A stretch of DNA of 64,000 nucleotides from an uncultured virus (IMG/VR IMGVR_UViG_3300008219_000006). Taxonomy: Duplodnaviria > Heunggongvirae > Uroviricota > Caudoviricetes. Position numbers and translations under genes: made by a program. The stretch lies in IMG/VR virus record IMGVR_UViG_3300008219_000006. The stretch is one strand, 5' to 3'. This document shows positions 3,890 to 63,660 of this stretch, one piece after another. Each line of letters begins with the position of its first letter. The first letter of the stretch is position 1. The notes under the pieces are model-generated. The model had not been told where the DNA came from. It made no database searches and was given only the letters and a program-made list of their open reading frames with translations.

Positions 3890-3918
3890 AATAATTGGGT
3901 AATGGAGTAACACTCCAT
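3890..3918 (+). promoter_or_regulatory. Putative phage RNAP promoter, copy 1
   Basis: aataattgggtaatggagtaacact; 24/25 identical to 7687-7711; core shared with 14968 and 62433. Confidence 0.75.
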
Positions 3919-3936
3919 ATGCCACAAGGAGAATAT

Positions 3937-39461: not shown

Positions 39462-40198
39462 TGGGACCAATGATGTTGATGGCAGGTGTGCAAGTTGCAC
39501 AAGGGGTTATGTCAGCCTTTGGAGCTAGAGCTGAGGCTAAGAGAAAACAAAATGAATTTCTTCATAATGAATATATTCGTCAGACTAATTTTAATAAGCA
39601 ATCTTTTAATGAAATGATGGCTAATGTTAATAGGTCTATTATGAACGATAGAATTAGTTCAGCAGCTGCTACACAGTTTGGAACCAATCAAGCTATTATC
39701 AACATGATTCAAGATAAACAGGGCGAAGATGTGATGAGAAATTACAAAGCTTCAAAGGCTATGTTAACTAATGGATTACAAGGTAAAGGAATAGATCCTA
39801 GTTCAGGAACTGGAAAGGCACTAAGTCGTATGAATTTAAATAATACATTTGAAAGCATAAAAGCTCTTGAATGGAATCGTGCTCAATCCTTAAGAAAGAA
39901 TAGAGAAGAGTATGGAGCTGCTGTATCTAGAATGGATCTATCTTCTAAATTACCTGATGCATATATTCCGGGTGTCTATAGCGGTCCTACACCGGGCCAA
40001 GCCTTTACTTCAGGAATGATTAGTGCAGGTTTACAGGGTGTAGGAGCTTATGCAGGGGCAGCGCATCAAATGGGATCATCAAGCGTGGCAGGTGGTGGAA
40101 CATATCAACAAGGACTTCAAGGTACTATGTTTGGTGATTCTGGTACTCAGGGTGCTGGTATTCATCACTCACTAGGAGGCCGCTCATGGAGAGGATAG
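39461..40198 (+). CDS. Internal virion protein (gp14-like)
   Basis: Hydrophobic Ala/Gly-rich ends, helical core, G..G motif; precedes large internal proteins. Confidence 0.65.
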   Translation: MGPMMLMAGVQVAQGVMSAFGARAEAKRKQNEFLHNEYIRQTNFNKQSFNEMMANVNRSIMNDRISSAAATQFGTNQAIINMIQDKQGEDVMRNYKASKAMLTNGLQGKGIDPSSGTGKALSRMNLNNTFESIKALEWNRAQSLRKNREEYGAAVSRMDLSSKLPDAYIPGVYSGPTPGQAFTSGMISAGLQGVGAYAGAAHQMGSSSVAGGGTYQQGLQGTMFGDSGTQGAGIHHSLGGRSWRG

Positions 40199-40210
40199 GA
40201 GAAATAGATT

Positions 40211-43200
40211 ATGCCAAAAACTGATACAACCAGAAGGGCAGAGAATCAAGCTAGAATACAGATACAACAACAAGCTGTACAACCACAAGCACAATTCTCA
40301 CAGGTAACTCCTCAGCCTATCCCTCAGTTTGAAATGGGAAGGTTAGAAGCAGGTCCTCAGTTAAGAGGACCCGGTGATGCGGAAATTCTTTTCAAAACCT
40401 TAGGTAGTGAACTTACCAGAGCCGTGAAAACCTATCAGAGTGTTAAGGATGAAACTGAGAGGGAAGATGCTGATAAACTAAAAAAAGAAATTGATGAAAT
40501 TAGAAAAGAAGTAGGCGTAACTTTAGATGAACATGTAGCTTTAAGTAAAATAGAAGAACTGAAATCCAAATATGAGTGGGAAAAAGGTACACCTGTAGAC
40601 AATCTTTGGTGGGATGAAATGCATAGATTCTCTGCTGCCGCAAACAAAGATTTATTGGGCGATAAGATGGATGAGTTTCGTCTTCAGGCTTCTAAGATAC
40701 CAGAAGTAGAAGATCGTAGAAACTTTTGGAGAGATACTATTAATAATGGAAATTCTCCTCCCGGTCTTGAAGATCTTATTAGGGCTGAGCTTATCAGAGA
40801 AGAAACGGGACTGGCTCAGGAAACCTATGCAATGCTAAGAGATAAAGCTGAGCTAGATATGATGGCTAAATATGATGAGATAATAAACGATCCAGATACA
40901 CTTTTTGAACTGCCTCCTAGAGCTGATGCTATTATTAATATGAGCAAAGCAATAGATCTTATTGGAGATCCTGTAACAATTTCAGAATTTATTGATCCTA
41001 CTAGTGGTCTGGTAGATATTGACAGCATGACTAGATATGCTGAAGAAAATGGGATTGAGTTAAATCATGTTACTAAGGAATCTCATTTAAAAAATGTAGA
41101 TCTTGCTAGAAAAATATATAGTAATATGGAAACGTCTGTGAGGAACGCAAAGCCTAGTAAAGGTCGAGCAAGAACAACACTATCTACCGATGAATCCAAT
41201 GTATCAGAATATAAAGCTGCTGGTAAGACTGGATATTATGGACATCATTTATCACAGATAAATGAGGTGAGAGAAAATACTGATAGATCTTTAGATGGTA
41301 TATTAGTTGAAATGGGAGGAAACTTATTTATTAATCCCATAGCAGTTAATACTCCTCCTACTTTACAAATAAGATCTGATATGGAAGTACCCCTAGACCA
41401 AGCAACACCAGAGTCTTTAAAAAAGCAGGGAGGTTTTTGGGGAGCATTCTTAAATAAATTTGATAGTGCAGAAGATCAAAAATCTATTGTAAGAGCATAT
41501 AAATTAACTAAAAAACAATGGGATGAAAAAGTATTACAAACAGATCGTGTAAGAAGATTTCAAGATTGGGATCGGGTTACTAAGAACGAACTAATAAGGG
41601 CAATGGAAAGAGAATCTGTTTTAGAATTTAATGAGAAGGGTCTTGCTGTTTCTTATAGAGAAGGAGAGGAAAGAGAAATAGATATGGTTACAGAGGTTTT
41701 TATCGAGGCGAATGCTGCGTCTGGAAATAAAGACGAGAATCTTCACAGGGCAAGAGGGATGTGGATTGGTCATTTAAAAGAAATGGGTATTGATCCTAAG
41801 ATTATAGACGGTTTCTCAAAACCTTCTTCTAATTCAAATAATGATAAGTTTGTTTGGTTTTTAGATGAGTTAAAAAGCGATCCTAGGTTTCATCATGTTG
41901 TTGCTATTAATGGTCGTACAACATTAAGAGATCCCTTAGATGCTCTTGAGGGATTAGTAGGTCGAACAGAAGAAAACTTAAGTGTGGCTGGATATGATGA
42001 AGAAATACAAAAAACACATGCAATTAATAACAGTATTTTAGAAACATTAGTAAAATTGGGAGTTCCTTTAACAGATTTTTATAAAAAGGTTGAAGAGGAG
42101 TACAAACTTAAGGAGGATGTGTTTTCAAGTAAGGGACAGTTTCAGCAATTTATTGCAGGTGATATATTTTTTACGACTGAAGAAGGAAATGAGGTATATA
42201 TAAGCGATCTCTTTGATGTTGAAAAACATGAGGATCAAATAAAAACACTTAATCAACTCTGGCAACGAAATCTTTTTAGGGATTCAAACTGGGAAACTGT
42301 TGATTTAATAGATTTAAGGGGAGAATCTTTGAAGAGAGGACAACGTGATGGAGCAATACTTAATGATTTACGCAAGTTAACCGATGAAGAAAGAGAGGAA
42401 GCAATAGCTGTCCACGCAGGAGTAAGAGGATGGGGTCTTTTTGCTAACGATCTTAGCGATGTGATTGATGCTGCCGGAACAACAGATTCTACTTTAAGAG
42501 TAAAGGGTATGATGGCATATGATAACGATGGGAATAAAAGATTTATTCCAGAAGGAGCAGATCTTAACAAGGTTCGTTATGAAGGATTAACTTTAGTCAA
42601 CAATGAAGTTGAAACATTTTATAATCCTATAGCTTTTTATGATTGGGGTAGAACTTTTGCAGACAGAATGAGAAAAAATCCAAATGCTGAGCCTGATAAT
42701 GAATCATCTTCTGAGTTATGGAGATCTTTACAAGAAGCTTGGCTAGAGTATTCTCCTATATTTGAAAGCTCTGTCACTACATTTGATGAGAAATCTCAAT
42801 CTGCATTTAATTCCATGCTTTTGTTTCACAAAGGATTGAGTGCAGGAAGTGCTGGAGAAATAGATATGGTTGAAGCAATTAGGATTTTGTCTACCTTAAC
42901 AGGTAGTGAATCAAGAGATCAAGTAGATTCTAGGAGTGCTTTTGAGAATTATGGTGTAGCACAGGCTGGACTAGTAACTCAATTGGCTAATCATCTTGAT
43001 GCAAAAACAAACATAGCATTCTTTAACTCTACGCCTGATAAATATAGAGATCTTATTAGAGGGCTAGATCCTAATGGAGGCGTTATAATTGAAGCATTAG
43101 TAGAAATGAATAAAAGACGTTTTCAACAAGATATATCCAATCGTGAAGACAATAGAAATTATAATAATAGCGAAAATATGGTGTTTAATCTTTTTGGAGT

Positions 43201-44947
43201 AGATACGACAACGCCGATATCTGAAACCGACGCAGTAAAGTATATAGCATCATTTCTTAGGAATCGTCTTATTGTACAGGCAATGGATCCTACTGCTTTT
43301 GAAAAAAGACATGCAGGTGGAACATTAAGTGATTATGATTTACTTAATAATATACTTAGCAGTATAGAAACACAAATTAACGAAAGTAGGGGAAAAGAGT
43401 CTTGGGAAGAGTTAGATATGAAAGATTTTCTAAGATTGCTTTGGAAAGGAGAAGCTTTAGGTGGTGCTCTTGCTATAGGAGGAATCTCAGTTGGAGATCC
43501 TTTACCTGATGATCATTTCTTAAGAGATTTTATATACTTAGACGAACCTAGCTGGACATTATGGGGAGGACTTGAATCATTATTTGGTATGACAGAAACA
43601 ACTGGAGAAGACTATGAAGGTTTGTGGGTTAGTGGAGATATTCCAACTAATTGGGGAAGAGATAGATCGGGACTGACTTGGGGCTGGGACCGGCTGATGG
43701 ATACAGACGAAGAGACGAGGCTGAAGTTTCAAACAATTATTGATGAGGTCGGTTTATCTCCTTATCCGCTTCTTCAGCAAGAACTAAGACCAGTAGGAAA
43801 TAGTTGGAGTGGTAATGATTTTGCTGCTCAGGGTTTGCAATCTCTGTATATGTTGGCACGATCAGTATATGCAGGACAAAGACAACGAGCGATGCATGAA
43901 TTATTAAAAAATAATCGAATATCTCAAACGATGGTGGGGTTGATGAATATAGGAACAGCAGCGGTTCAATTTCAGTCCGGTAGTACAATATCCCATATCT
44001 CTCCTCCAAACCGTGCTCCTCAGATGAATTCAGTAACACAAGGAACATGGGCATCATTTGCGAGGAATCCCGAAAGAACATTTATTAAGGATCCTAAGGA
44101 TGTGATAAGAGAACGTACATATATAAACCTAGGACCAAAAGCATACAGTGTTTGGATGGATGCAAGTAGGATAAGAAGTGAGCATATTACAAATAGAGAA
44201 AGTAATTATCATAAAAACGTAATATTAGATACGCTCTTTCAGCCAGCTGTAAGAGATGATGAAAAAGATGGTTTTCTGCCAGTAGGAACATTTCTAAGAA
44301 CTCCTGATATTGAAACGATACTTGGGGGTCGAATGGTAAATGTTCTTACTTCTGTTAGAACAAAGGGTAAATTAGTATCCATGGCTATGGAAATAATAAA
44401 ATCCTCTGCTAATCTTCCTAAGGATTTTAAAAGACAAGAAGCTAGTGAAAAAATTCTAGATAAATATAAAAAAACGATTGAGACTTATGCTCCTGAGGAA
44501 GGTACTTTGTTATCGTTTCTTGAAGCCATTTCTCAACATGATCCTGCTACATCTAGAGATAATCCATCAGGAAATCTAGGTACTATATTAGGAAGGCAAT
44601 CTCTTGGAGAAATAAGTGAAATGGTAAAGTTAAATAGTAAGCGACTGAATGGTGGTAACTTAGGGCAGCGTTCTTATTTTACTCATCCAGATGTGTTTGC
44701 TTTATATAGACCAGCAGAGGTAGAAACAAGGGAGGATAGAATTCCTTTATCCGGTGGTCCTCAGACTAGCTACCATATACCACGGGCGATTGTTAATCCA
44801 GATGGTACATTTAGTTTAAATTTCATGACTAGGAATAAAGATGGCGATAAGTATTATTCTCATGATGAGAGTTCACCTATGGGTTGGAGGAGTGCTGCGG
44901 GAACTAATATTGTTATTCCGGCTGCATGGTTAAAGCTCGAAGAATAA
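40211..44947 (+). CDS. Large internal virion/ejection protein (gp15-like position), 1578 aa
   Basis: Position after gp14-like gene; Q/P-rich N-terminus and helical composition; no catalytic motif recognised. Confidence 0.55.
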   Translation: MPKTDTTRRAENQARIQIQQQAVQPQAQFSQVTPQPIPQFEMGRLEAGPQLRGPGDAEILFKTLGSELTRAVKTYQSVKDETEREDADKLKKEIDEIRKEVGVTLDEHVALSKIEELKSKYEWEKGTPVDNLWWDEMHRFSAAANKDLLGDKMDEFRLQASKIPEVEDRRNFWRDTINNGNSPPGLEDLIRAELIREETGLAQETYAMLRDKAELDMMAKYDEIINDPDTLFELPPRADAIINMSKAIDLIGDPVTISEFIDPTSGLVDIDSMTRYAEENGIELNHVTKESHLKNVDLARKIYSNMETSVRNAKPSKGRARTTLSTDESNVSEYKAAGKTGYYGHHLSQINEVRENTDRSLDGILVEMGGNLFINPIAVNTPPTLQIRSDMEVPLDQATPESLKKQGGFWGAFLNKFDSAEDQKSIVRAYKLTKKQWDEKVLQTDRVRRFQDWDRVTKNELIRAMERESVLEFNEKGLAVSYREGEEREIDMVTEVFIEANAASGNKDENLHRARGMWIGHLKEMGIDPKIIDGFSKPSSNSNNDKFVWFLDELKSDPRFHHVVAINGRTTLRDPLDALEGLVGRTEENLSVAGYDEEIQKTHAINNSILETLVKLGVPLTDFYKKVEEEYKLKEDVFSSKGQFQQFIAGDIFFTTEEGNEVYISDLFDVEKHEDQIKTLNQLWQRNLFRDSNWETVDLIDLRGESLKRGQRDGAILNDLRKLTDEEREEAIAVHAGVRGWGLFANDLSDVIDAAGTTDSTLRVKGMMAYDNDGNKRFIPEGADLNKVRYEGLTLVNNEVETFYNPIAFYDWGRTFADRMRKNPNAEPDNESSSELWRSLQEAWLEYSPIFESSVTTFDEKSQSAFNSMLLFHKGLSAGSAGEIDMVEAIRILSTLTGSESRDQVDSRSAFENYGVAQAGLVTQLANHLDAKTNIAFFNSTPDKYRDLIRGLDPNGGVIIEALVEMNKRRFQQDISNREDNRNYNNSENMVFNLFGVDTTTPISETDAVKYIASFLRNRLIVQAMDPTAFEKRHAGGTLSDYDLLNNILSSIETQINESRGKESWEELDMKDFLRLLWKGEALGGALAIGGISVGDPLPDDHFLRDFIYLDEPSWTLWGGLESLFGMTETTGEDYEGLWVSGDIPTNWGRDRSGLTWGWDRLMDTDEETRLKFQTIIDEVGLSPYPLLQQELRPVGNSWSGNDFAAQGLQSLYMLARSVYAGQRQRAMHELLKNNRISQTMVGLMNIGTAAVQFQSGSTISHISPPNRAPQMNSVTQGTWASFARNPERTFIKDPKDVIRERTYINLGPKAYSVWMDASRIRSEHITNRESNYHKNVILDTLFQPAVRDDEKDGFLPVGTFLRTPDIETILGGRMVNVLTSVRTKGKLVSMAMEIIKSSANLPKDFKRQEASEKILDKYKKTIETYAPEEGTLLSFLEAISQHDPATSRDNPSGNLGTILGRQSLGEISEMVKLNSKRLNGGNLGQRSYFTHPDVFALYRPAEVETREDRIPLSGGPQTSYHIPRAIVNPDGTFSLNFMTRNKDGDKYYSHDESSPMGWRSAAGTNIVIPAAWLKLEE

Positions 44948-45424: not shown

Positions 45425-46477
45425 ATGTTAATGGGTGAAGATAATATCGGTTATATTATAAATAGAGGAGATAGCTTATATCGAATTGCTAAAGAACACC
45501 AAACTACTATAGATGAGCTGATGAAACTAAACAGAGATATTATTGAAAATCCTGATCAAATTAGAGCAGGTGAAAAGATAAATGTTCCACAGATAGGTAC
45601 TAGACTTAATCCTGAATACGATAGCCTCAGAAAAGATTATATGTCTAATATACAGCTTAAAGAAGGATTTAAAGGATACATCTATAAAGATCCGTATGGA
45701 ATACCAACAATAGGATTTGGAACAAAATGGACTCCAGAAGCTGCTATAAGATTAGGAAAGATTATAGGCGGTAAAAAAGTAATGAATATTAAAAACGGAT
45801 CAGACAAGCTTAGTAGACCCGAAGCTATGCTTTTAGCTGGACAAAGTTTGGCTCATTACGAGAAAACATCAAGATCAATGGTTGGAGATAATATTTTTAA
45901 ACCTCTTCCTTTACCACTAAGACAACATATGGTTAGGGAAACAAGACGGGGATGTTGGACTAAGAATGTAGATAGAGGAAGTCCTAAGGCTATTAAGGCT
46001 TTCATTAATAGAGATTTTAAAGAGTTTAAATTTCAAATGACAGAGGGTAGGAAAGAATGGAGAGATGCCCTTGATAGAAATGCAAGAGGAATTAGAAATA
46101 ATATAAATGATTTTATTCAAGAAGCCAAAGAAGGATGGTTTGATCCAGAAGAGAAAAGATTTCAAGAAGGATATTCAGAACTTGTAAAACAAGCTGGTTT
46201 AGCTAAAGATCCGGATGATCCATTGCATCAGTATGATTATAGAGCTTTATTTTATAATGAAGGATTTGACTTGAGTCCGGGTGCTCATCAGATTAGTAAA
46301 CACAAAAAACTAGGTCATCCTCATTTAATACTCCCCGCTTCTCAGGTATTTAAAGATGGGCTACCCGAAGGAATAAAATCTACGGATCTTATTGATACTA
46401 GAGACGGTACTCTAGCAGATGACAAACTTATTGAAAGAAACAGATATTTAACAAGAGGACTATTAAAAAAACCATAA
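45425..46477 (+). CDS. LysM-domain lysozyme (GH24/T4-type catalytic motif)
   Basis: LysM YIINRGDSLYRIA...LMKLN...I.AGEKINVP; EGFKGYIYKDPYGIPTIGFG (E-8x-D-5x-T). Confidence 0.85.
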   Translation: MLMGEDNIGYIINRGDSLYRIAKEHQTTIDELMKLNRDIIENPDQIRAGEKINVPQIGTRLNPEYDSLRKDYMSNIQLKEGFKGYIYKDPYGIPTIGFGTKWTPEAAIRLGKIIGGKKVMNIKNGSDKLSRPEAMLLAGQSLAHYEKTSRSMVGDNIFKPLPLPLRQHMVRETRRGCWTKNVDRGSPKAIKAFINRDFKEFKFQMTEGRKEWRDALDRNARGIRNNINDFIQEAKEGWFDPEEKRFQEGYSELVKQAGLAKDPDDPLHQYDYRALFYNEGFDLSPGAHQISKHKKLGHPHLILPASQVFKDGLPEGIKSTDLIDTRDGTLADDKLIERNRYLTRGLLKKP

Positions 46478-46517: not shown

Positions 46518-49500
46518 ATGATTGTGCCAGAAGAAATTCAGCAACCTAAACACTTTAAGTCATTATTTGATTTACAATACGAAGAAGCTATGGATAGACA
46601 CGAAAACTTTTTCGGTCCATCTGATGCTCTTGATGCTCATAAAAACTTACGATGGTTAGAAGTTAAAGCTGGTAATATTTCTGAAGATGATTATATGGAA
46701 GAGTTTGGTTATTTCGATAGAAAAAAATCTATAGATGAAAGATCTAATCATTGGTATAATATGATTGATAATTATATTATTGAAGATCCTTTTACTATTG
46801 AACAACTAGAACAAGATCCAAGCCAAGCACAATATCTGGCAGTAATGAAAAAGAATCATGACCGTGGAGAATACAGTCTTGGTATTATGAGTCGAGAAGA
46901 AAGACTATCACTACCACAGCAAGGTGTTGGTATGTATCAAAGAAGTGGCTGGTATGAATCCCACCTAAAAGAACTTATGACAACCCATAGACAAAAGAAA
47001 GATGGTTCTTTTCTTCTTCAGTCAGATACTGGTCAAATATTAAATCCCGAAGAAATCGCTAAGTTTATTGATGAAGGAAGTATTGATCACACAAAAATTC
47101 TTCAGTGGAAAACACTTTCATTGGACGATCCTCTTTGGTGGGTAATTGGACAAGAGGGTACAGCTGCGGTACTAGATAAGAAAGCACATTCTGATTATTC
47201 TGGTAAAGATATGGTAATGGAACTTCAAGAGGTTGAACCATCTCTTTGGTCTGCATATATAGTAGCAGGAGGAACTGGACAAAGATTAGAACAAGCTAAG
47301 AATTCTTATGATTGGTGGTATAAGTTTAACTCTACATTGACTGATCATGCTATGGCATTATCTACTATGAAATATATGGTGGAAGACGAAAACTTTTTTG
47401 ATTGGATAATACCAGCTGGTATCTCTTTCTTTAAAGAATCTTTTATTAAAGATCCAGATATGACAGGAGATTTTACTGTTTGGGGTTCGATGACGGCAGC
47501 AGGGGCTGCAACAGGCGCAATAACTGGTCTAGGAGCAGGTACAATACCGGGCGCAATAGTAGGTGGTATTGGTGGGGGTATATATTGGTTAGGAAAAAGA
47601 GTTAAAAGAGTTCAAAGTGTTATGGACAGTATGATAAGTATGTCTCAGAAAGCAAAGAGACTCAATAGAAAACAACGCAGTCTTCTCTATTTGGAGACTG
47701 GGGTTAAGACAACAGAACAAATCTTAGATGTAATTATGCCAACACGGTGGGCTTCTTTTGTTGGAACGAAACTTGGTTATGTAGACAATCTAACCTTCTC
47801 GGAAAAAATGTCTGATGCTCTACACTTTAGAAAAGCGGCTTTTACAAGAAGGTTAAAGTTAGCTCCGTTTGATGCGCTTGAAGGATTTATTGAAGGAAGT
47901 ATTGTTCATATAGCAGATGCTAATGAAAGAGGAGCTAATTGGACTTTAGGTTCTATGATACAAGAGGGTGGTATAGAAGCGGTTGTTAGTATTGGATTGA
48001 ATCCGACTATGAGAGCAGCTATGCAGGGAGGCTCTGGTTTACTAGGAGCTGGAGCACAACTAACTAATAAATTTGTTTCAAAAAATAATGATCCTGTTAT
48101 TACAGATCTTATGAATAGAGCTTCAAGAATTGTATTTAGACCAAGAAGTTTGGAAGAACAAATGGAAGCTGTTGATAAGTACGATAAATTTATTGAGTTT
48201 GGTAGTAGATATAAAAATATATTTGGAGAATATTCTCATGCTGAAAGAATTGAAGCTGGAGAGGCCAAGTACTTGTTTCCTACAGATCCAAAGAGAGCTA
48301 ATAGAGAACGAAACTTTTTAGATTCTTTGTTTGATACGGTACAACTTTTGGCGCAAGCTCAGAATGTAGAAAACCAAACTTCATGGACCCTTAATAAGAT
48401 GGACGAAATCTTGTCGATGCTTGAAAAAAAAGTCAAGGATGAGAAGCGACCTAGTATGGGTATTAAGGAAGCAGCTGAATTATCTATAAAATCTTTAATT
48501 GGATCTATTGATGCGGTTGTTAAAGCAGATCCAGATTTTGATATTAATCTTGCGAACAACTTAAAAAATATGATAGCTAGTGAGTATAAAACATTTCTTC
48601 TTTTAGATATAGCTAGAAATCATGTAGATCCTATTACTGGCGAAAAGAAAGAACTAACTATAGAAGAAGTAATAGAAAAAATTGATCCTACTAAAGATGA
48701 GTTCGATGTCAATCTTTGGTTTAAGACTTTTACAGAAGCAGAAAGAGAATTATTAAACGATGAAATGGATCGAAGGGGACTAAAGCTAGAAGATATTACT
48801 GATGATCCAAAGCTAACCCAAGAGATAGTAGAAAAGGTTACTGAAGATTGGATGGGTAGAACAGAAGATACTCGAAGGTTAGAAGATGACGCTCAAAAAA
48901 AGAGAATAGAACACGCTTCGGCTCTTAGTGATTTCCTTGAACAACCTATAACTATTCAAGATATAAGAACTGGGGAAACTATTGTTGTAGGAGGAGATAG
49001 ATATACTGGTACTCCTCTAACTATAGATGAAGCTATTAAGAAGAAAAACGATACAGCAGACGAAGTAGAAAGTGAACCTGAGATAGATGAAGAGGAAGTT
49101 GAAATAACTGAATTAACTCCAAGAGAACAAAGGATTATAAGAAATTCACAAGAGAGGTTACAAAAAGGATTAGAAGCTTATAAAAAAGCAAAGACACCTA
49201 AAGAAAAGAAAAGTGCTTTAAAACAAATAGCTAATGCTGTTTGGAAAACTGAAGGAAGACTTAACAAAATAACAAAAGAACGAGCTGGAAAAGAAATAAT
49301 AGATTTGCAAAATGAAAGTCAAGGTATTTTAACTAAAGAAAATATTGAAATAGGACCAGATAAAGCTGGAGATCCTATGGATTTTAATAGAGTTGATACT
49401 GAAGTATCTGACATAAAAGGTGAAACAGCTGATACAAGTGAAAATTTTGTTATTTTACAAGTTAAACAACCAGTTATTAGACAAGGAAATGAAAGGTTAC

Positions 49501-52500
49501 AATATGCTAAAGTTGTATTAACACCAGCTGAAAAATTTACACCGGAACCTATAGATGCTCCTCAAACTATCGTACCTACTGAACCTCCTGCTGAACCTAA
49601 GAAGAAAACAAAGAGTCAAAGAAGAAAGTTACTTGAAAAAGCAAATGATGCAGAAGCCGTAGCTGAAGGATCTTTTGAAAAGATTAGCGAAGATCGAAAA
49701 GAAATGTTGATAGATGTTAATAATATTGATATTGAACTAGCTCAATTAAAAGCCCAACTTGATCAAATGAGCGATGAGTTTTATGAGACTGAAGAAGGTA
49801 AGAAAATAAAAGAAATAGCCGATAAACAAGCAAAGCTTAACGAAAAACGAAATGAATTACTTCGTGAAATGGGTTTTGAATCTAGAACTCATAGTGTAGA
49901 TGGTTCTAGTCTTAAGTCTGTTAAAGAAGCTATTATATCTTTTGCTAAAGAGGATATCGAATCCGAAAAGAATCGGCTTAAAGAGATTGAGAAAGATACA
50001 AATATTCTTGAAAATACCAAAAGAGTCTTGGCTAAAAAACTTGGAAAAGACGCTACAGATAATGATAAACAAGAGCTATTAAAACAAAAAAGATCAATCC
50101 TTCTCAAGTTCTTGACTAATAAAAGAAACAACGATACTGTTGCTGGAATAGCAAAAGCAGCAGAAATACCTGTAGAATTTATTAAGGCTTTAAAAAATAA
50201 CGAGGTTGTATCTCTAGAAGAGTTTGATAGAATTTTATCTAATACCAAAATACAGAGTTATTTGACTGGGATTATTAAAGACGTTAAAAAATATGGAACA
50301 CTAGAAGCTGATGTTGTAAAGAATAATATAGAGAAAGCAAACGAAAGAATAACAAATGCTGGAACATTAGCATCTAAATGGATGGAGAATGTTAAGAGTG
50401 GAAGAAAGAATTTACATGAATTAGGAAAAGCTCAAAGGGCTGCATCTAAGGTTCATAAATATCAAGAAATGACAGAACTAAGAGCAAAGATAGCTAATGT
50501 ATCGTTAGCAAAAGGAACCTCTGTTGCTAGACTTGCAGATATTCAGCCTGATTTTGATAACTTAGTAGAACTGGCTTATATAAAGCAAGTTATTTCGGAT
50601 ACAAAAGCAAGTAAGAGAGATCTAAAACAAAGGATGAAGGGTAAGCGTACTATTACCAAAGCAGATCTTAAGATTGTAATGTTAGGAAATTACCATACCC
50701 ATGAATATATAGATGGATTCTTTGTAACCTCTGAAGATTATTCAGGTCTTGATGAAGATTCCGAAATTGATATTGATAAAGCAAGAGATATAATTAGTAG
50801 CTTTGGTGAATGGCGAAAGAATACTTTAGGTAAGCATGTTGGTATTCAATTACAAAACGCTACTTTGGCAAATAGAAGACCAGAAGCGTTAAATAATTTA
50901 TCAGATGGGCTGAAAACAGCAGTTAATATTGAAGAGTTTGGTCCTAATGATAAGCCATTAATAAACATAACACCAGAACAAGCTAAGACAAATGCAAAAT
51001 CAAGAAGGGTAGAAGTTAAAGATACTGCTGAAAGTATAGGACAACTAGGTCTTGATCTGTTAAAAGCAACCAAATTACTATCTAATCTGAAGAGATTAAA
51101 TGGTAGGTATAGTAATATCGGTCTTGTTGTAGCTCAACTAAAGCAAGCTGGTTTGGAAAACCTTAATTTTGATCATCCTATTTTCCATACAGAACTTAGT
51201 CCGGTCATTCTAAAACATGCAGGAGATATAATGTATGATGCTAAGAATGAATTAGATCTTACAGAACTGTATCCTCTTGATATTACAATTGATGGTATTA
51301 AATCTGATGATTACTTGAATGTTATTGTAGATATTAATGAACTAGAGAATATTCTTACTGCTCTAGCTAGTCAAATAAATAACAAACTTCAGATTATGGT
51401 TAACGAGGGAATTAGGGGAGCCGATACACAGATCACTAATATGGATGAAGCTAGTCTTAATTTATATAAGCAATATGAACTTGTTACTAGGCTTCATGAA
51501 GGACTGTTAGAACACATCTCAACAATGACTAATCCCTTGAGAAGGGGATGGGATAGAGATCTTGATAGTCAATTCTTACAGCTTGGTGATACAACTTATG
51601 AAACAACTCCTCATGAATATCGTCAAACAGTTGAAAACTATTTTGCGAGAGGTCTTGGAGATATACAAAACAAAAGACTATGGGATGGATATAGAGATCT
51701 TTTTGAACAATATCTAATAACTAGAAAACCAGATCCCAAGAGTATAGACTTAGATATAAAAGAACTATATGAACAAATTTTAAGGGATGAAGTAACCTTT
51801 GATCATAATAGTCAAATAACTCTTATGTACAAACTTGTTCAAGAAGTTTTAGGTATTGAGGATATAACTCAACTAGGAGGACTTTCAGAAGGAAGTCGTT
51901 TGGCACTAGATTGGGTTTCGGCAGAAGAAGCTGGATTTGCTTTGGCTGATTTTATTTTCCGAAGAGAAGAAGTTTCCTTATATAGAAGAGTCGTTAAGAG
52001 AAAGAGTTCTTCAAAAACTGGCGAGGGTGAAATAACTAGTGAGCAGCAAATTACTGATAGCGAACAGGGAACAGAAACTGAATTACAAGCTAAATCAGTT
52101 AGAAGTGATATACCTTTGTCTGCTAGAAACCTAGCAAGAAATTGGGAAGAGTCTGTATATAGACATAGGATGAGAAAAAGTTTAGAGTATTTGACTACAG
52201 CAAGCGATGAGGAAGTTGAATTAGTTATTGCTAGTATTCGAGAAAGTGTTCCAAGTAAGGCAGAAGCTTATAAGAAGTATGCAGATGAAACAGGTAAGGA
52301 TGTTAAAACTCTAACTGCTGAAGAAAAAACTAAAGCAATTAAAACTTTTTATCTTCCTGAGAAAGAGAAGGTAGCCAAGATGGCTACAACCTATTCATTC
52401 CTACCTCAGATGACAAATAGATCTCCCGGTGAAACAATTACTAACTTTGAACGATGGGAATCTTTTGTGTTTGAGGTTATGATGGATTGGCCTGTATTGG

Positions 52501-55500
52501 GAATGAATCTTATACATGATGGTAGATATTATACAGATGGTACTGTTGTTGAGTTTCTAGGAAAAGACGAATCACATCAAAGGTATGCAGATGATAATGA
52601 TCTTGATGTTGAAACTCTTACTGAAGATCAAATTAAAGAAGCCGAAAGAGTTTATCCTCCTGAGATGTTGCACATGAAACCTTCTACTGCTGCTAGAGGA
52701 ACTAGAGCTCAGCGAAGTGAAGATAAAGTTCGTAAGGCAGCACATGCTGGTATGCCTATCGGTAAACTTACTTTAGCTGGATTCTTTACACAATGGGCTC
52801 ATGGAAGACTTAATATTAACTTTGAAGAGTTTGCTAAATCTGCCTTAACTCTTGGCAATGAAACAGTAAAAAGTTTGGGAATCAATAATCTATTTAATTT
52901 TACATCAAGTAAAAACTATGCCGATCTTAATGCTGCTGGTATTCATTCACACTTTAGCGTATTAATGATGACACCAAAAAACAGAGAGGCTGCTGAAGCT
53001 TTGTTGGATAAACTAGTAAACCAAAGAAACAAAGTTTTAGGAACTACTCCTGAAGATCAGTATCTTGAGGCTAGTGAGTTTGTATTAGAAACAGCTTTAC
53101 ATACATTAGAAATATCTGGATTGCATACAGATATTTTTCCGGGTATACAATCTTTAGAGAAGATTGCTGCTGAGTTTGATTTTGAAGGGGTTTTAAAAGA
53201 TATTAAAGCTGGTAGAAAAAAAACTGCAAGAGTCGAAAAATTCAGAAAACTTATAAAGCACCCTATTATGGTTAAACTTTATTGGGCTGGACAAGAAGGT
53301 ATTAAAAGTTCTTTTAGTGATGCAAAGGATGCGGGACTGCTTGAAGGATTTACTGAACAGGACTTAGATTGGTTTGCTCTCTTCTTAGCTCAAGGTGGTG
53401 CAGTTTTGCGACACAATCTACTTAACCATGCTCTTCAAAATAAAGACGGTAAGCCTACTAGCGATGTTCTTGGAGAATCTATGGGCGTTGATATGGGCGA
53501 TAGACAAGAGGCTCTCAGGATATTAAAAGACTTAGCCAATCAAGAAACAGATGTTGTTAAAAATTATATGGACCTGTATGGCAAACAAATTGAAGGCAGA
53601 GATACAAAAGCAAGAACTCTTGAAAAATCCTTAGAAGATTTTGTGAGTGCTAAAGCTTTATATCTTGCACAAGGAGATCTTGCTAGAGCAGAAGAACTTA
53701 AGCCTAAGATTAGAGCAGAACATAAAAAGAGAATTGAAAACCTACAAGAATATCTAAGAGAGAACGGACTAAAGGAAGAATCCTTAAATGATCCTGTAGT
53801 TATGAATCAACACAGAGGAGAAATTGAAAGAATAATGATGGGTTGGGAGGGAGATGCATGGAAAGAAATGCCAATGCTTCGTGCTATTAATGAAAAGAAT
53901 GCTCAACCTGTTACTCTAGCAATAGATGAAAAAACCAAAGCTGCTGGAAAACCAGCTGGTATTGATATGGATCATGTTGGAGAACATTGGTTAATGGGTA
54001 GCCTATTAGATAAGTTTACCCTGTTCATAGAATATGGAATTGATACCTCATCGGGTCGATACAATCCTATGGATCCAAGTCCTTTGACACCATATAACTC
54101 AACTCTTGGATCTTTCCGTAGTGATGAAAAACCATACTCTATCTGGAAAACAGAAAACAATAGATTTGCTAAGATGGCTACTGATGAAGAGGGTAATTTA
54201 GATCCTAAAAAGATGAGGGCTTATATAAATAGATTGATTGCTATTGACTTATCTATAAGAATGATACAAGACTATGATCCTCCAATTCCAAATTTTGAAC
54301 CATATACAGAAAAAGATTTCTGGGCAGATTGGCAAACAGAGTCAGATCATACAGTAGCTTCTAGAGAAAGAGAAATCAATTTTTGGGAAGATCCAGAAAA
54401 CAATGATTATGAAATATCTAAAGAAGAATTCAATAAGAATACATATGGTGGGACAAGAGATCATAGGTCTAGACCATTGTTTGCTAGGCGTAATATAGAT
54501 TATAAGAGTAATCAAGAAATGAGTACTAAAGATCCTGCTGGTATCGCGGCTTTACGTCCTAGAACAGGAAAGCCCGGAAACCTAATGCATGACAGAGGAT
54601 CTATGTTTCTTAGGAAAGAATCTTTAAATAGAAAGCTGAGAGAGAAAGAACAAAGATTAGAACATCTTCGTAATACAATAAATACTACTGAAATTGATAC
54701 TAATATTATGTCTGATATTATTAGTGGAGCACATCCTTTCCAATCTGATACATTACCTGTAGGACCAACACCAGATACTACAACCCTTTCTCATGTCTTT
54801 GGAGATACTATAGATGAACAAGTATACAGAGCTATACGAAACATTGAAAATAAGATTCGTCCTTGGGCTATGGAACGTGGTTACTATAAAGAAGTAAAAG
54901 ATAATAAATGGGGACGATTGTGGATTATGTGGGAGATGGATCGTCTTCATAAGAATACTATTAGAGAAACAAGACAAATCCTAAAAAGTTTTCGTGGAGC
55001 TGATGTTTGGGATCAGAACGATATAGAAATAGGAATGCGACAGATAAGACTTTCTTATTACGATAAGCTTTACAAACTTCGATCAGTTGTACATGAACTA
55101 AGAAGTAAAGGCTTTGATTCTAGAGAAGCTGATATTATGGAAAATCAACTTAGTGCTCATATCAATATGGATGATATGACCTATATCGAACTAGCAAGAA
55201 CTCTAGCAGATAGCGGATTTGCTCAGGATTCAAGAGTCTTTACTCCAGCTCCTCATCATTTAATGGCTATTGATCCAGAAACAGCAGCAGATCCTGTAGA
55301 ATTTACAAGAACTGTTGAAGGTCCCATTGCTATGCATCACTTAGAGCAAGCATTAGCTGAGCATGAAATAGTATTTATAAGTTATGTAAACGAAGAATTA
55401 AATATATTGTCTAAAGAAGATACTGAATTAGGGAAATATCTAAGGGATAAAAGAGATACTTTTGAAAGCGGTCGCCATCTTAATTGGAAAGACCTTCAAA

Positions 55501-58500
55501 ATATGATGTGGTCTGAAAACGAAACTGTTAATCAATGGGCAATGGATATTCTAGATAAGGCTGAAAAGAAAGCTATTAATGCAGAGCATAAGAATTTTTA
55601 TATCTACTTAGATCCTGACAGTGAAACTAGATCTACGATGACTTATGATAGAAAAGAAGAAGGAAATGTAAAAAGACTTTGGGGTGGATGGAGTCCGTTG
55701 ATTTCACAAAAACCTATTGGTAGTGCAAGGTATCATCTGACTCCAGAAGGATTGCAACAACTATTTGTTAATATTCGGTCTACCTTATTCAAGAAATTAG
55801 AAGATAGACAAATTACTGGCATTAGTACTCTGCACTCTGAACCATCTTTGGCTCAACGATTAGACTCTGGTTATCAAGCAGATACTAGAAGATCTCACGA
55901 AGCGTTGTTAAAGGCGTTTGAACTTATGGGTGATACTGAAGTCGGAGACTATACTCTTGTTGATAAATCAAGAAGAAGTTCTTTTGATGATAGAGAACCT
56001 CAAAGAGTTCTTGATATAGATAAACTTTCAGGTATGAAGATAGTAACTGGTAATAGATTTGATCATGCTTGGGATAGAGCTTACTACTCTCAGTGGGAAG
56101 CAACTAAAGAAGCTGCTAGAAGGCAAGGTAAAACAAGGCTACTAGATTATTTAATAAATCAAGAAGAGCTAAATCCTGAACTTGTAAAAATACATGCTAT
56201 ATCATTACATGCTGAAAACTTTATGGGACTTGGTACTGAAGAAGCAAGAATATATGCAGCTGCTATAACAAACAAAGATGTTGATTGGGTTGATAAAAAT
56301 ACTTTGTTACTAGATAATCTACAACAAGAGATTAACAAGTGGGAATTTTCAGGTCCTTTAGAAAAAGCTATTATGGAATTAGAACGGCATCATAGAAATA
56401 CATCTACAGAAAATACTTTAGATAGAACTAATGTAGATAATTTAAGAAAGGTATTAAAAGTATTTGGTATGGAAGATTCTGCTATAGATGCTATGCCTGA
56501 ATTCAAGGATTATAATAAATGGATGAATAACGGTTTATCGGTAGTTATTGATATTGAAACTGATATTGCTGAGGATGGTGTTCCAACAAAAATATATCGA
56601 GTAGTTAAACATTATTCTAGGAAAAATACAAAAGCTGGTTTTATTTCTGAAGTTGTAACAGGAGAAGATTTAAACAGTATTCTCGTAGAAATAGAAAGAG
56701 CTCAGCAAGCTGGATATAAGGTTGTTACTTATAACGGCAATACTTTTGACTTTAAGCATCTAGTTAGGTTAGGAGCAGATCCTAAGATAGCTGCAAGAAT
56801 TGCTACTAGAAGCATTGATTTGTATAGTCTCTTAAGAAGAATGAAAGCTAATCAAGATAGTCGTAAGGGAAGCTTAGGACGAATATCTGAACTACTTAAT
56901 CTTGGTAAGAAAAAAGAAATTGGTGGATATATGGTTCACCTTTTGGAATTAAGGAAAAGTGGAAAGACTTTAGATAAAACAGATTTACCTATAGCCTATA
57001 GAAATGATGAAATAGCTATTGATGAATTAAATAAAATTAATGATATGGATTCATCTGATCCATCTTTAGAAACTCGTATTGTAAACTATACTCTTGAAGA
57101 CGGTGTATTAACAAATAAACTATTTGCGGAGTTGTTAAAACGTCAAGGAGAAACTAATATTAGTCTTGGAGAAATTGGAACTCTTGATTTAGTTACAGAA
57201 CTGTATCCAAACTGGGCATTAGATATAGATGGAACTAGAGCTGTAACTAATAAAGATGCCTTTAAATGGATAGATGATGTAGTTATTCCTAAGCTTATTG
57301 GTAAGGAAGAAGATACTTCTGACTTTGGATTGCATAACAAAGGGTTTGTGACTGAAACTGGGAGTAGATTTAGAGATCGAGCAGAGAGAGAAGCAAAAGA
57401 ATTCTTTAGAAGAGGAAGGCTTTGGGCTGATAAGAGAGAATTCAATGAACAACGAGATAAACTAAACGGTAAGAACTACGATGCAATCGAGGTCTTGTCG
57501 TATCAAGACTTTATTAATGAGGTTTTAGGAGAATCAGTTACACTAACAGAAAATGATGGAAGACTAATGGCAGCTAAATATGCTATGGAAGCTATTATGG
57601 CTGAGCGTAAACCTACAGAACTTAATCTATTAGATTTAACTAGAGGTATAGATGAAGATGTAGATTTATCCGATCTTGGGGATTCTAAAAAATTCGATCT
57701 TGTCTTTATACACAATGATGCTGCTCTTAAAATGAATAAAACATTATCTAGAGCAGAGAGAGATGGTACTCTTAAACCAGAAGTAGTAGTTGGGTTGAGA
57801 ATAATGTTTGCTCATTTAGCTAGAATGAATCCAGACTTCTTTAGAACAGTCGAGTTTGAGATAGATCCTAGTGATATATTCGATACTCAAGGAAGAAGGC
57901 AACGGGGTAGATTTGGTATTAAAGATAATAAATTCCATATGATTATAGATCCAAGAGAATCTACCGATGTTCAGATTGTTGAAATTGCTCTTCATGAAAT
58001 CATAGGACATATGGGCGTTGAGAAGTTTGTTAGAAAGAATGAAGCTGATTGGGTAAGTATGGTTGAATGGCTAAGAACTGCTTCTGGTAGAAACGTAGTT
58101 GCAGACTTTGTAAAATCAAATCCAAAATATAGTCACTTAACTGAAGCAGAAAAGAATAAGAAAGTTGAATATTACCAAACAAATCCTGAAGAATGGGCTG
58201 CTCTTTATATTTCTTATCAGCTTATGAAGGATGTTACTCATGATTCTATGATTGATATCAATAATCCTAAAATTAATAGATCTCTAAGAGGCATGATTAA
58301 TAAGATTGTGTCTTCAATAAGAAACCATCTTCAAACAATTACCGATGCTTTGTTTAGGTTTAGAAAGACATATCCTCAAGCATATGAGATGATGGAACGA
58401 ATTACAGAAAATGCTTATGGTTATCAAACAAAAGGTAATATAAGATATAGAAGAGAAGCACAAACTCCAAATCGAGTAGCAAACGATTATGAATCTACCC

Positions 58501-61500
58501 ATGAAGGATCTGATACAGAAAACATGTATTCTTTTCTTAATCCCTTAGCCGGAGAACAGGGAGATAATGCTCTTACTCTTCATGCATTTGATAAAAATAG
58601 TGGGGTTAAGATGGGAACTCCTTTGAAGAAGGGAGAGCTTTCTGGACTAGCTAAGACAGAAGAAATTGAAACATGGGTAAGAGAAGAAGAAAACGCTAGA
58701 AGAACTCGTATTGATTTAAGAAATGAATTAAATAATCTTACTATAGGTTCTGCTGAACACATCGCTAAACAAATAGAGTTTGATAATGCTGCTAAAAAAG
58801 AAGGAGAAATATCTCAAAGAATAAGTGATAATGAATATAATAATCTTTTTGGACAATCAAGAAGAGAAGTAGCAGATAATAAAGTTGAATTAGCTAGAAG
58901 GTTTGGTGACGAACAAGTAGTTGATTATATGTTGGGTGATGAAGCTAATGGGTTTGTTATGAAACAACAACAATACAACGCAGGTAAGCTAAGAGAGATA
59001 ATGACTTCTAGTAAACAAGAAGATATTACATTAGCTAAAACATTCCTAGCTTTGTCTTTTGAAAATATGATTAAAAAGCGTGGAGACTATGTAAGAGAAA
59101 ACGCAGAACGATGGTTATCTATGTTTCCTCATATATACATGAGATTAAACAGATTGGCAACAGGTGGTCTTGCTGGTCTTAATACTACTCAATCAGATCA
59201 AACATATTTAAATACCATTATTCCTATTGTTATCTTAAGTAATCTAGTTGTACCCGGACTTGAAAATGTTTCTGGTAATGTACAAAATACAAAGGGATGG
59301 GATAGTTTGGATGATAGGCGAAACGAGTTGTTTGATATAGAAGAAGCAGCTAGAGAGTATGATAAAGAATTTGTTAAGAATACTGTTGATGGTAAGACTA
59401 TGACAGAAGTACAATTTGATCAAATAAAAGAACTATCTCTTTCTTTAATCAATGATCCATCTAGTGTCTCTTCCAGCCATCCTTTTTATGATTTAGCTAG
59501 AGAATATTCTAAGACATCTGAACAACTCATACAAAGAGCTACTGATTATCTTGTTAATGCCCGTGTATTACAAGAAAGACATTTAGAAAAACCAGAGCAT
59601 AGACTTATGCTATCTTTAAACAAAACAAAAATAGGAGATCTTATATCTAAGAATCCAGATGTTATTACTCAAGCTAAGGATGAAATAAGAAGACAAGTTT
59701 TAGAAAATCTGTCTTTAACAGATACTTCATCTATTGTAGATCCTGTTTCTCTATATGCTTCTGGTATTCTACCTGACATAACATCAAGTGAAGTTAATCT
59801 TACTTTTATTAGAGGTTGGGATGATATGCCTTTGGTTATCAGAAATAAGATTGATCAAGAAATTAAAAACGATCCTTCATTAATGACAATAACTGAATGG
59901 GATAGTGACATGCTTATGCTTGATACTAATCCTAGCTCTGAAGCTAAAGCTAGATTAAAGATATATAAAATTCGGAAACAAAAGGTTGAAGCATTATATA
60001 AGAAAGCAGATTACGGTGCTACTACTTTATCAGATATTATAGGATCTGGTACTTCTGCTGGAGAAGCAGCTTCTATCATATCACAATATAATTCTTCATT
60101 AGAAGCACACAATACTTCTTTAGTAGATAAGTTTAGAGCACATTCTGGAAGTTATCTGGCAACTATGATTCTTAGTGGAAATGGTTTAGCGAGAGATTCT
60201 GGTACTCATATGTTATTTACAAGTAAGGAAGCCAATAGTGTTGTTGGATTTAAATCATATCTTCTTATGAATAGAATTGGTTCTACTGCTTTTATTCCCC
60301 ATTCAATTGTTGGAATACCTAAGTCTTATGAATTAATGACAAACGATAAAACAAAGATGTTGTTTAATACCGATGTAGGTAGTATATCACGGGCTCTTAC
60401 AAGAGGACCGGGATGGAATGCTGGAACAATTCTAGTAATGAAGGAATTTACTAATTCAAATATAAACTTTTCTGACTTTCTGGATATGTTTAGAAATGTT
60501 ATTGATAACTCGCCTGATTTAGATAGTATTAATGTTATAGATCAGTCTGTTCTAAACCTTAGTACAAAAATGAGAACTGATCTTAAAAGCAAGATATTAG
60601 ATGATATTGAAACTCTAAGAAGAAAGATGCAGATTACTGGTGGTATTGCACTTAGACAATATAATAGATGGAATAGTGCAATTGATACTGCAAATGATTT
60701 TACTTCTACTTTGTTAGGACCAAACCTAACAGTAGCTACGCTAACTGTTGAAGGTATGATGAATACTACCTCTCTTATGTTTGGCGGTCCTCAAGGATTA
60801 AAGAACTTTGCAACTGCTGTGATTGATTCTATAGCATTTGCTTCTTCTGGTAGTACTAAAAAAGGACGTAGCCAAATGCGTCAGCTTGCTAGAGAAATGG
60901 GATGGTATGCAAAACATAAGAGACATAGTATGTTTGAAGTACACCGTTCTGTTCTTTATGGCGATGAACTCCATGATGATGAAGTAGGTGGGCTTAAAAG
61001 ATATCTTAGAAGAACTAAAACTTATTCTAATAGTGTAAACGGTGGTATTAATATTGCTCTTAGAAGTCAATCTACTATGTCCTATAGAAAATGGTTTGCA
61101 GAAATTCTTGGAAATGATAAGCTTAAAGAATTAATTATTAAAGTAAATGATGCTAAAGAAAAAGGTGAGTTTAAAACTAGAGCAGATATTAAGAGGGTAG
61201 TAAAAGAAGTACTAGGTTCTTCTCATGGAAGAACTGAAGCTGTTTATCAAATGGCTAAAGCTGGTCTTTTAGATCTTGATATTCTACCTGATATTAAAAC
61301 TCTTATTGATGAATCTGATGTTGTATATGGTGTACATACTTATGGTGGTAGAATGAGAAACTACATAAGCGAAAAGACAGATACAGCAGAAAGAACAAGA
61401 CTTAATGAGGTATTGCGGAAAATGAAGAATTGGGAAAATATCGTAGTACATATGAATATTGTTGATCCTAATGCTATGGATATTGATACAACGGATGTTC

Positions 61501-62438: not shown

Positions 62439-62452
62439 TTGGGTAAAGGAGA
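62433..62452 (+). promoter_or_regulatory. Putative phage RNAP promoter, copy 4 (phiOR-like position)
   Basis: gaataattgggtaaaggaga overlapping the stop of the giant gene. Confidence 0.75.
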
Positions 62453-62630
62453 GGGGGGACCTAGGGACCTAGGTTTATATTATATATATAATATATAACT
62501 AGGGTAAACTAAGGACCTAGGAAATCGACTAGGGGTCACGAATACACAGCTAGGGAGAGATTATAAGAGGACTTTCTTTTCCCCCCGTACCCCCCTTAAT
62601 TCTTTCGCTATAAAAAGCGATGGGGTACCG
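62453..62630. repeat. Candidate genome end / terminal-repeat region
   Basis: ggacctagg three times plus further ctagg units, 20-bp AT palindrome 62476-62495, ccccccgtacccccc at 62581. Confidence 0.55.
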
Positions 62631-62638
62631 AGTGCTAA

Positions 62639-62953
62639 TTGAAACTAGCCTACTGCCCGTGGAAGGGCTTGCAGGTGGCTGGTGCTCATTATATCCTACC
62701 GGATATGGTGGGCATTATGGATAATCCTATTATCCAGACCTTGCGAGGCATGGTCAAGATAGGAGCATCGTTGTTCCTAATTTGGCTCATGCTTCAAGCA
62801 GCTTATGAAAGTATGTCTATGCTTTCACAAGCGGTGGATAGTTATGGTGTGGACTTCGCTTACAACGATCACCTCCTTTGGGCGGCGATTTCGTTTGGCG
62901 CAGCTTCAATCATAATCTCCATCATGTTTGTTCGCTCCCTTTATAGGGACTGA
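62639..62953 (+). CDS. Hypothetical membrane protein (start uncertain)
   Basis: Two hydrophobic helices. Confidence 0.4.
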   Translation: MKLAYCPWKGLQVAGAHYILPDMVGIMDNPIIQTLRGMVKIGASLFLIWLMLQAAYESMSMLSQAVDSYGVDFAYNDHLLWAAISFGAASIIISIMFVRSLYRD

Positions 62954-63211
62954 ACAGCATCTGCTGCATGATCCATTGGAGGTTGGTCTGCCAATGGCGG
63001 GGTTGTTGAACCCGATACCTTGTCACTCAAGGGGTTCACTGTGGCTCATTCACATCTGATGAGGAGTGTCGTTGCTCTCCAGCGACAATCTCTAGGACAC
63101 TTAGATCCTAAGCATCTACCTGATGATCATTTCGATAAGAGATAATTCTTATACCCTGAGCTAGCTAGGGTTGTACAGCTAGCAATCATGTTTCCTTTGA
63201 AAGGACATGCC

Positions 63212-63556: not shown

Positions 63557-63660
63557 GAGTGAACCTATGGCACTACAGGCTACCGCTTGTAGTGTCATTT
63601 GCCCTAGGTTAGTCGGGGCTGCAAAGTGACTAACTGAGTTCTTCCATAGGAGGCACTGCG

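Follow-up and report, generated by a model that had tools for sequence, protein, structure and literature searches.

Can a T7-like phage carry, within a protein that it ejects into the host, an RNA polymerase (RNAP) of the kind that phage N4 packs in its virion? The question is raised by a giant open reading frame (ORF) in the 64,000-nt stretch of DNA analysed here (hereafter the window), which comes from the uncultured virus IMG/VR IMGVR_UViG_3300008219_000006. In the ORF list this frame lies at 46518..62438 on the + strand and encodes a protein of 5306 residues without cysteine. A preliminary description of the window had proposed that part of this protein is a second single-subunit RNAP-like domain with the motif spacing of the N4 virion RNAP (vRNAP). 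Virion-delivered single-subunit RNAPs are treated as a hallmark of N4-like phages only, at least in the accessible parts of two published accounts (PMC5512222, PMC13434306). Our literature search, which reached few subscription journals, found no T7-like phage for which an internal virion protein had been described as containing an RNAP-like module. We consider it likely that residues ~1985–2700 of the giant protein are a real, very diverged module derived from a single-subunit RNAP (ssRNAP), at least in its fingers.

Homologues of the giant protein were found in IMG/VR and in ocean metagenome contigs. Across protein collections, IMG/VR and JGI metagenomes they form four lineages: that of the window, which includes identical copies on other contigs; P0002, with 5199 aa and 38–40% identity to the window protein; and P0005 (on L003) and P0006 (on L008), both ~22% identical to it. 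P0005 is incomplete at the start of its contig, and the fragment P0004 belongs to the same lineage. A word-index search returned only the giant protein itself and P0002, profile searches at the 'near' and 'longer' lengths returned no relatives, and an exhaustive representative search returned P0004 as its one fragment; scans of IMG/VR and metagenomes gave no further lineages. The family is rare and escapes standard annotation. Because deeper searches kept returning the same lineages, the alignments used for AlphaFold2 remained at four sequences.

Over these four lineages, an RNAP-like region can be followed through aa 1985–2700 (52470..54617; this and all features below lie on the + strand) by its conservation and by site-to-site distances that stay nearly constant, at 125–140, 108–125 and 429–442 aa. 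The motif strings named in the preliminary description lie where it had placed them: IHDGRYY, at the T/DxxGR position, at aa 1999–2005 (52512..52532); YADLNAAGIHSHFSVLM, from aa 2134 in the motif A-like stretch (aa 2134–2150; 52917..52967), with D2136 at nt 52923; and RKLIKHPIMVKLYWAG, from aa 2243 in motif B (aa 2243–2258; 53244..53291). Their spacing in ORF 46518–62438 is 133/107/4/8 residues, as described. The N4 residues that had been named for comparison (R424, D559, R666, K670 and Y678 in mini-vRNAP numbering) proved true on the N4 record EF056009, where D951 was located as well, and are spaced 135/107/4/8; in the window's own T7-like RNAP the spacing is 112/67/4/8, and the giant protein is thus nearer to N4. 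Invariant in all four lineages are I1999-H2000-D2001; D2136, G2141 and H2143; D2180-x-Y2182; R2243, K2247, P2249, M2251, L2254, Y2255, A2257 and G2258; D2509 and R2514; and D2692, G2694 and L2698-R2699-K2700. The R-x3-K-x7-Y pattern of motif B (R2243, K2247, Y2255), which in ssRNAPs lies on the O-helix of the fingers, is therefore complete throughout; in the window protein Y2255 is followed by W-A-G in place of G.

The strongest signal came from motif B. Against a profile of 45 N4-like mini-vRNAPs, taken from 61 loci and 27–100% identical to N4, it ranked first of ~925 gapless positions (score 32.0, z 7.6; the next position scored −2.7, z 3.1), and it again ranked first against a profile of seven T7-like RNAPs from the window and its relatives (z 5.5). 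When the four motif blocks were chained co-linearly on the N4 profile, none of 300 column shuffles reached the observed score. This result is carried by motif B, because without it 57 of 300 shuffles did as well. On the T7-like profile, 21 of 300 shuffles reached the observed chain, and 113 of 300 did so once motif B was left out.

Comparisons of whole profiles led to the same segment. A hidden Markov model (HMM) of the 45 N4-like vRNAPs scored P0002 at 12.2 bits over model positions 610–694, with −3.0 bits for the best reversed-sequence control; on the window protein it gave a single domain, placed at motif B, at noise level (−3.6 bits). The top Pfam match of P0002 was PF21894 N4_RNAP_helical (E 0.01; 16.2 bits, with a cut-off of 27) at P0002 aa 2169–2245. 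Its top PHROG match was phrog_414 RNA polymerase (E 0.024) at profile positions 539–615, which is the DxY-to-motif-B part as judged against the window's RNAP; two separate libraries thus converge on one segment of P0002. In the reverse search, the 642 ORFs of the fetched loci, 81 of which are N4-like vRNAPs, were scanned with an HMM of the giant family. All 24 ORFs reported at E ≤ 1 were N4-like vRNAPs, matched in every case within HMM positions 320–435 and with the best value (E 0.0046) going to the most diverged vRNAP; 33 other ORFs of at least 700 aa, T7-like RNAPs included, gave E values of at least 6.9 or nothing. These 24 vRNAPs are related to one another and so count as one observation, not 24. 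With hhalign, DxY and motif B formed the top alignment against the N4-like family (P 0.054 and 0.057), and motif A did so against the T7-like family (P 0.22). Taken at the level of profiles, the fingers segment from D2180-x-Y2182 to motif B is related to N4-like vRNAPs.

We also observed a correspondence in fold. The segment that runs from D2180-x-Y2182 through motif B and the next helices, aa 2180–2298 (53055..53411), is the sole part of the region with both profile and fold support. In a low-confidence model, it alone superposes on T7 RNAP, and its best structural matches were residues 569–689 of T7 RNAP and 954–1044 of the mitochondrial RNAP POLRMT; single-subunit RNAPs took ranks 1 and 2 among 48,161 chains. 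As modelled, then, aa 2180–2298 fold like T7 RNAP 569–689. In the ESM Atlas, the nearest listed clusters for aa 1850–2800 that have an assigned family were all PF00940 or N4 vRNAP domains (score 0.79). No RNAP cluster was returned for a control stretch of the same protein, aa 4000–4950, so the signal is specific to the region and does not belong to the protein as a whole. The nearest clusters of that control stretch (58515–61367), with scores of 0.94–0.95, are viral hypotheticals and a bacterial cluster, 34% of whose members have LPD39.

Could all of this arise without homology? An alpha-helical internal virion protein might hold an R-x3-K-x7-Y helix by chance, the weak matches being echoes of that one helix, and the fold and language-model results may indeed both echo one motif B signal. 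We regard this explanation as improbable. The match spans ~90–120 residues, from D2180-x-Y past motif B, and falls in the same register by HMM, by hhalign and in the structural comparison, where the two highest-ranking chains were both single-subunit RNAPs. Two libraries independently placed an RNAP family first for P0002, the reverse search returned vRNAPs in 24 of 24 cases, and the control region showed no RNAP signal.

A polymerase fold could also belong to a family A type DNA polymerase or a repair-synthesis domain, working with the RNase H-fold (exonuclease-like) domain that lies further downstream in the protein. DNA polymerases have an aromatic residue four positions after the motif B lysine. 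The giant protein has methionine there (M2251), as does the window's own RNAP, and its motif A has the D-x4-G-x-H form of RNAPs. RNAPs, not DNA polymerases, also gave the best matches in fold and profile, and the window's own PolA went unmatched in the reverse search. We consider a DNA polymerase very improbable.

The proposal of an ssRNAP-derived module has to be set against a series of contrary results. Only the neighbourhood of motif B stands statistically; T/DxxGR, motif A and motif C do no better than shuffles. R2003 (nt 52524), which the preliminary description had taken as the T/DxxGR arginine, is arginine in two lineages and glutamine in the other two (L003 and L008), the invariant residues at that site being I1999-H2000-D2001. 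Scored as T/DxxGR, this IHD site ranked second against the N4-like profile (z 3.2) and 18th against the T7-like one (z 2.4), and of all sites in the region it fitted the T7-family motif C block best (rank 1, z 4.9). A second invariant D-x4-R, formed by D2509 and R2514, lies out of order, downstream of motif B. The motif A-like stretch ranked second against the T7-family core (z 3.7) and fell outside the top three against the N4 profile; in L003 and L008 it takes the form D-x-x-x-N-G-x-x-H, as in the window's own T7-like RNAP, and the strand that precedes D2136 is polar. The caution over YW in place of YG was well founded: motif B reads YW in two lineages and YS in two, with A-G following one residue later. 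Among the residues whose conservation had been put forward as a check, D2136, R2243, K2247 and Y2255 held in all four lineages; R2003 did so in two and the YG of motif B in none.

The same holds for the earlier difficulty in placing motif C. A candidate, NLMHDRGSMFLRK, occurs at aa 2688–2700 (54579..54617), beyond the coordinates that had been considered; D2692, G2694, L2698, R2699 and K2700 are invariant within it, and the family as a whole follows the pattern h-h-h-[HQF]-D-[RK]-G-x-h-h-L-R-K. The D2692 site ranked fifth against the T7-family motif C block (z 2.9) and supplies block C of the best T7-family chain. D2001 ranked first (z 4.9) but is upstream of motif A. Motif C is thus ambiguous between the two aspartates, neither of which rises above shuffles, and the candidate at D2692 lies 437 aa past Y2255, against 273 aa in N4. 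'SDHTV' (D2610) was also tried as motif C and rejected, as it ranked 135th and its aspartate is replaced or shifted in L003.

Structure prediction adds to these reservations. The AlphaFold2 models built from the four-sequence alignments were poor and gave the whole palm and fingers fold that had been anticipated no support: they reached a predicted local distance difference test score (pLDDT) of 43.0 and a predicted template modelling score (pTM) of 0.25 for aa 1850–2800, and a pLDDT of 54.5 and a pTM of 0.45 for aa 1985–2320. Foldseek found nothing at E ≤ 0.001 in the PDB with either model. The proposed ssRNAP-like domain therefore stands in its fingers, where profile, language model and fold agree from DxY to motif B, and lacks support in its palm.

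Standard searches were largely silent. The window protein matched no RNAP model in Pfam, PHROGs, NCBIfam or PDB sequences. All the library matches described above are below cut-off and come from one of the four homologues; the other three, including the window protein, had no RNAP match in Pfam or PHROG. PF00940 matched none of the four at E ≤ 10, and no Pfam vRNAP domain model exceeded its cut-off in them. A six-frame PF00940 search of three relatives' records recovered only their ordinary RNAP genes. Searching PDB sequences with phmmer gave one chance match (E 0.042), and none was found with a profile. The region had no tblastn match in 50,697 phage records, and when the giant protein was compared with N4 vRNAP by BLASTP, no match had an E value below 0.58. 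The seven-sequence T7-like HMM produced noise on the giant proteins, about equal to that of reversed controls, and the P values from hhalign are marginal. Its global mode gave no usable alignment of the core, and a comparison of the C-terminal third with the C-terminal part of the N4 family gave P values of at least 0.3, HEXXH site included. Membership of the N4 vRNAP family, as first proposed, is not borne out. Since the module lies outside the PF00940 and Pfam vRNAP thresholds and two of its defining residues fail, we classify it as a variant that is like, or descended from, the N4 arrangement, and not as a family member.

What, then, might such a module do? The answer bears on the other polymerases of the phage. 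The window contains an ordinary T7-like RNAP of 829 aa, our comparison throughout, at 3895..6384 (PF00940, 9.3e-84; phrog_414, 2.3e-156). The records of three relatives each hold two PF00940 genes, one of 820–846 aa and one of 665–722 aa, and a second RNAP gene is found ~2 kb before window base 1 on a 24-kb contig, the RNAP of which matches that of the window at 100% identity. This small ssRNAP gene (~600–648 aa; L101 1–1815; G005:C1 ~5.4–7.2 kb) lies outside the window, has complete T/DxxGR, A, B and C motifs, and is located between the giant gene and the 829-aa RNAP gene, here and in three of three relatives (L094, L095, L096). Two T7-type RNAPs in one T7-like phage are unusual. Because two ssRNAP genes are already present, the giant-protein module would be the phage's third ssRNAP-type unit; it is 'second', as the preliminary description had it, within the window, where 3895–6384 is the first, and not within the phage.

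Our best explanation, for which we judge the chances to be about even, is that the module is still an active RNA polymerase and, like N4 gp50, initiates early transcription on delivery by the virion. With two complete ssRNAP genes in the phage, a third polymerase is not plainly needed, and this counts against such a role. It also suits another explanation, in which the module derives from an ssRNAP and no longer polymerises, serving the ejected protein as a nucleic-acid-binding part, a DNA-holding or DNA-pulling part or a scaffold; early transcription would then fall to the RNAP of the host and the two ordinary ssRNAPs of the phage. The loss of the T/DxxGR arginine in two of four lineages and of YG in all four, the lack of significant palm motifs and the 437-aa stretch from motif B to candidate motif C would all fit a module of this kind. 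So would its rate of change: the RNAP of the window is 79% identical to that of the L002 phage, and the giant protein is 38–40% identical. By sequence comparison, the ejection protein evolves much faster than the RNAP. We nevertheless think the loss of polymerising activity rather unlikely. The R, K and Y of motif B, which touch the incoming nucleotide in known enzymes, and D2136 are invariant across lineages with 22% identity, which is hard to explain without substrate binding, and two invariant aspartates, D2692 and D2001, are candidates for the second metal site.

A polymerase acting from the virion would have to enter the cell, and here the composition of the giant protein is informative. 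Cysteines number 0 of 5306 residues in the giant protein, 0 of 5199 in P0002, 1 of 3257 in P0005 and 2 of 4627 in P0006. Two genes upstream at 39461..44947, at 39461–40198 (245 aa) and 40211–44947 (1578 aa), also encode proteins without cysteine, and the replication enzymes of the same phage contain 1.1–3.5%. By position and size, and by analogy with PMC13434306, these two genes are gp14-like and gp15-like; neither protein matched a family in PHROG or Pfam scans. We counted no cysteine in the 3500 residues of N4 vRNAP, where its absence is presented as a requirement for entry into the cell in the accessible part of PMC3821669. As described in the available text of PMC13434306, the ejection operon of N4-like phages comprises gp14-like and gp15-like proteins and the vRNAP, at the gp16 position, as third ejection protein; PMC4819975, again as far as its accessible part extends, describes the N4 polymerase as embedded within a homologue of T7 IVP-D. 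The giant gene is likewise the third and last of a cysteine-free ejection-protein set, in the same place as N4 gp50. By analogy, the 5306-aa protein is probably injected into the host as a 'polyvalent' internal virion protein, its assignment to the gp16 type being made by position alone.

Other parts of the giant protein resemble cargo. An RNase H-fold domain that starts DIETD occupies aa 3344–3473 (56547..56936; PF13482 RNase_H_2, E 1.4e-6, 28.8 bits, cut-off 22) and is also present in P0002; Pfam scans of P0005 and P0006 gave no RNase H-fold match. Further along, HEIIGH (HEXXXH) at aa 3826–3831 is followed 58 residues later by NPEEW at aa 3889–3893 (57993..58196). Both histidines, the glutamate of HE and N-P-E-E form invariant columns, with HELAH in L003 and L008. 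To judge from these residues, the site is probably a zincin-type metallopeptidase, a kind common in polyvalent proteins; no Pfam profile matched it, nor did hhalign match it to the C-terminal part of the N4 family. According to the accessible text of PMC5512222, nearly every N4-like RNAP module is fused to a zincin peptidase, and variants with HEXXXH occur. The protein also contains hydrophobic stretches (aa 4230–4251 and 5038–5056) and glycine-zipper stretches. Its N- and C-terminal parts matched nothing in PHROG or Pfam, apart from a weak endolysin PHROG match at aa 322–378 (E 6.2e-4).

If the module is a working polymerase, infection could proceed as follows. The giant protein would be carried in the capsid and ejected into the host along with the DNA, taking the place of T7 gp16 and built, like N4 gp50, as a 'polyvalent' carrier of cargo domains. 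D2136 would act as the motif A aspartate, with D2692 or D2001 as the second metal-binding aspartate. On entry, the module would transcribe the first incoming DNA, presumably the region after the giant gene, in which the small ssRNAP gene would come first and the 829-aa RNAP gene next. It would thereby start an N4-like polymerase cascade and might help to pull the genome in, and the HEXXXH peptidase downstream may cut the cargo domains free. The fullest form of this proposal is that a marine T7-like lineage packs an active N4-style vRNAP, runs a cascade of three polymerases (the virion module, the ~600-aa and the 829-aa ssRNAPs) independently of host RNAP, and represents an intermediate between gp16 and gp50. 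We put this forward tentatively, as less likely than not.

The rest of the window fits the same type of phage. All 25 of its ORFs of at least 150 aa are on the + strand. PHROG and Pfam scans recovered a T7-type gene set (RNAP, primase-helicase, PolA, 5'-3' exonuclease and ribonucleotide reductase) and T7-type structural genes (portal, scaffold, capsid, tubular protein, nozzle protein and large terminase). The terminase is only 35–40% identical to those of marine T7-like phages such as uncultured Mediterranean phages, Roseobacter phage CRP-114, Synechococcus S-CBP4, P-SSP7 and Pelagibacter HTVC025P. Judged by these genes, the window comes from a marine T7-like podophage. Downstream of the terminase, the order is the 245-aa gene, the 1578-aa gene, a LysM and phage lysozyme gene at 45425..46477 (PF01476, 9.7e-11; PF00959, 4.7e-4) and the 5306-aa ORF. 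The nozzle protein (27067–33309) has 2080 aa and 92 cysteines (4.4%), and the tubular protein A homologue (23022–27113) has 1363 aa; both are much bigger than their T7 counterparts.

Several repeats were observed along the window. A 30-nt element starting AATAATTGGGTAATGGAG recurs at gene junctions, at 3890–3919, 7687–7716 and 14969–14998 and also at 62432–62443, with copies 93% and 73% identical; it might act as a phage promoter or as a signal at stop-start junctions. An AT-rich palindrome at 62468–62503, with 18-nt arms that are 89% complementary, no spacer and a perfect centre, begins 30 nt past the stop of the giant gene, at the likely border of the late and early regions. The early region has a 58-nt direct repeat (81% identical) at 1696–1753 and 1989–2046, and no recurring short hairpin of the N4 promoter type was found in 62400–64000 and 1–3900. 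Within a 273-aa ORF (35324–36145), a 30/31-nt unit is repeated head to tail in three perfect copies at 36008–36098.

If the relationship to vRNAPs is true, a diverged relative in a protein at the gp16 position would connect the two classic strategies by which podophages infect, and the way in which ejection proteins gain cytoplasmic cargo could be tested on it. A polymerase with unusual active-site residues would be added as well, having Y-W or Y-S for Y-G and, in half of the family, no T/DxxGR arginine. Similar modules may hide in other giant phage proteins. Should the three-polymerase reading hold, it would point to an early origin, among podophages, of polymerase cargo in the third ejection protein, and not to an N4 invention.

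How does the giant protein compare with systems already known? It is like N4 gp50, the vRNAP whose mini-vRNAP comprises residues 998–2103, in being a giant, cysteine-free product of the third gene of an ejection set, in its motif spacing (133/107/4/8 against 135/107/4/8) and in the profile-level relationship from DxY to motif B. In both, a His-Glu zinc-site motif lies downstream of the polymerase part, as the accessible text of PMC5512222 describes for N4 vRNAP. It differs from gp50 in that the T/DxxGR arginine and YG are not kept and no N- or C-terminal likeness was found; it is also 1800 aa longer, has an extra RNase H-fold domain and belongs to a T7-like genome. To T7 RNAP and mitochondrial RNAP (PF00940) it is linked by the best structural matches for aa 2180–2298, by the form of motif A in L003 and L008, and by the methionine four residues after the motif B lysine. 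Unlike T7 RNAP, it has no PF00940 match, its spacing from motif A to motif B is 107 residues against 67 in the window's RNAP, and it is embedded in a 5306-aa structural protein.

The giant gene resembles T7 gp16 (IVP-D) in ending a row of three cysteine-free genes, of which it is the largest, beside the structural genes of a T7-like genome, in its hydrophobic and glycine-zipper stretches, and in having a lysozyme function nearby. It differs from gp16 in that searches revealed no sequence likeness, a gene of its own encodes the lysozyme and cargo domains are carried; the protein is four times as long as T7 gp16. With polyvalent proteins (Iyer et al. 2017, PMC5512222), as the accessible part of that account presents them, it shares the combination of many unrelated domains in one delivered polypeptide and a probable zincin hub, and the nearest ESM clusters of aa 4000–4950 include one with LPD39. 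In the same text, N4-like virion RNAP modules are confined to N4-like phages and prophages; compared with those, the module of the giant protein belongs to a T7-like phage and has diverged much further.

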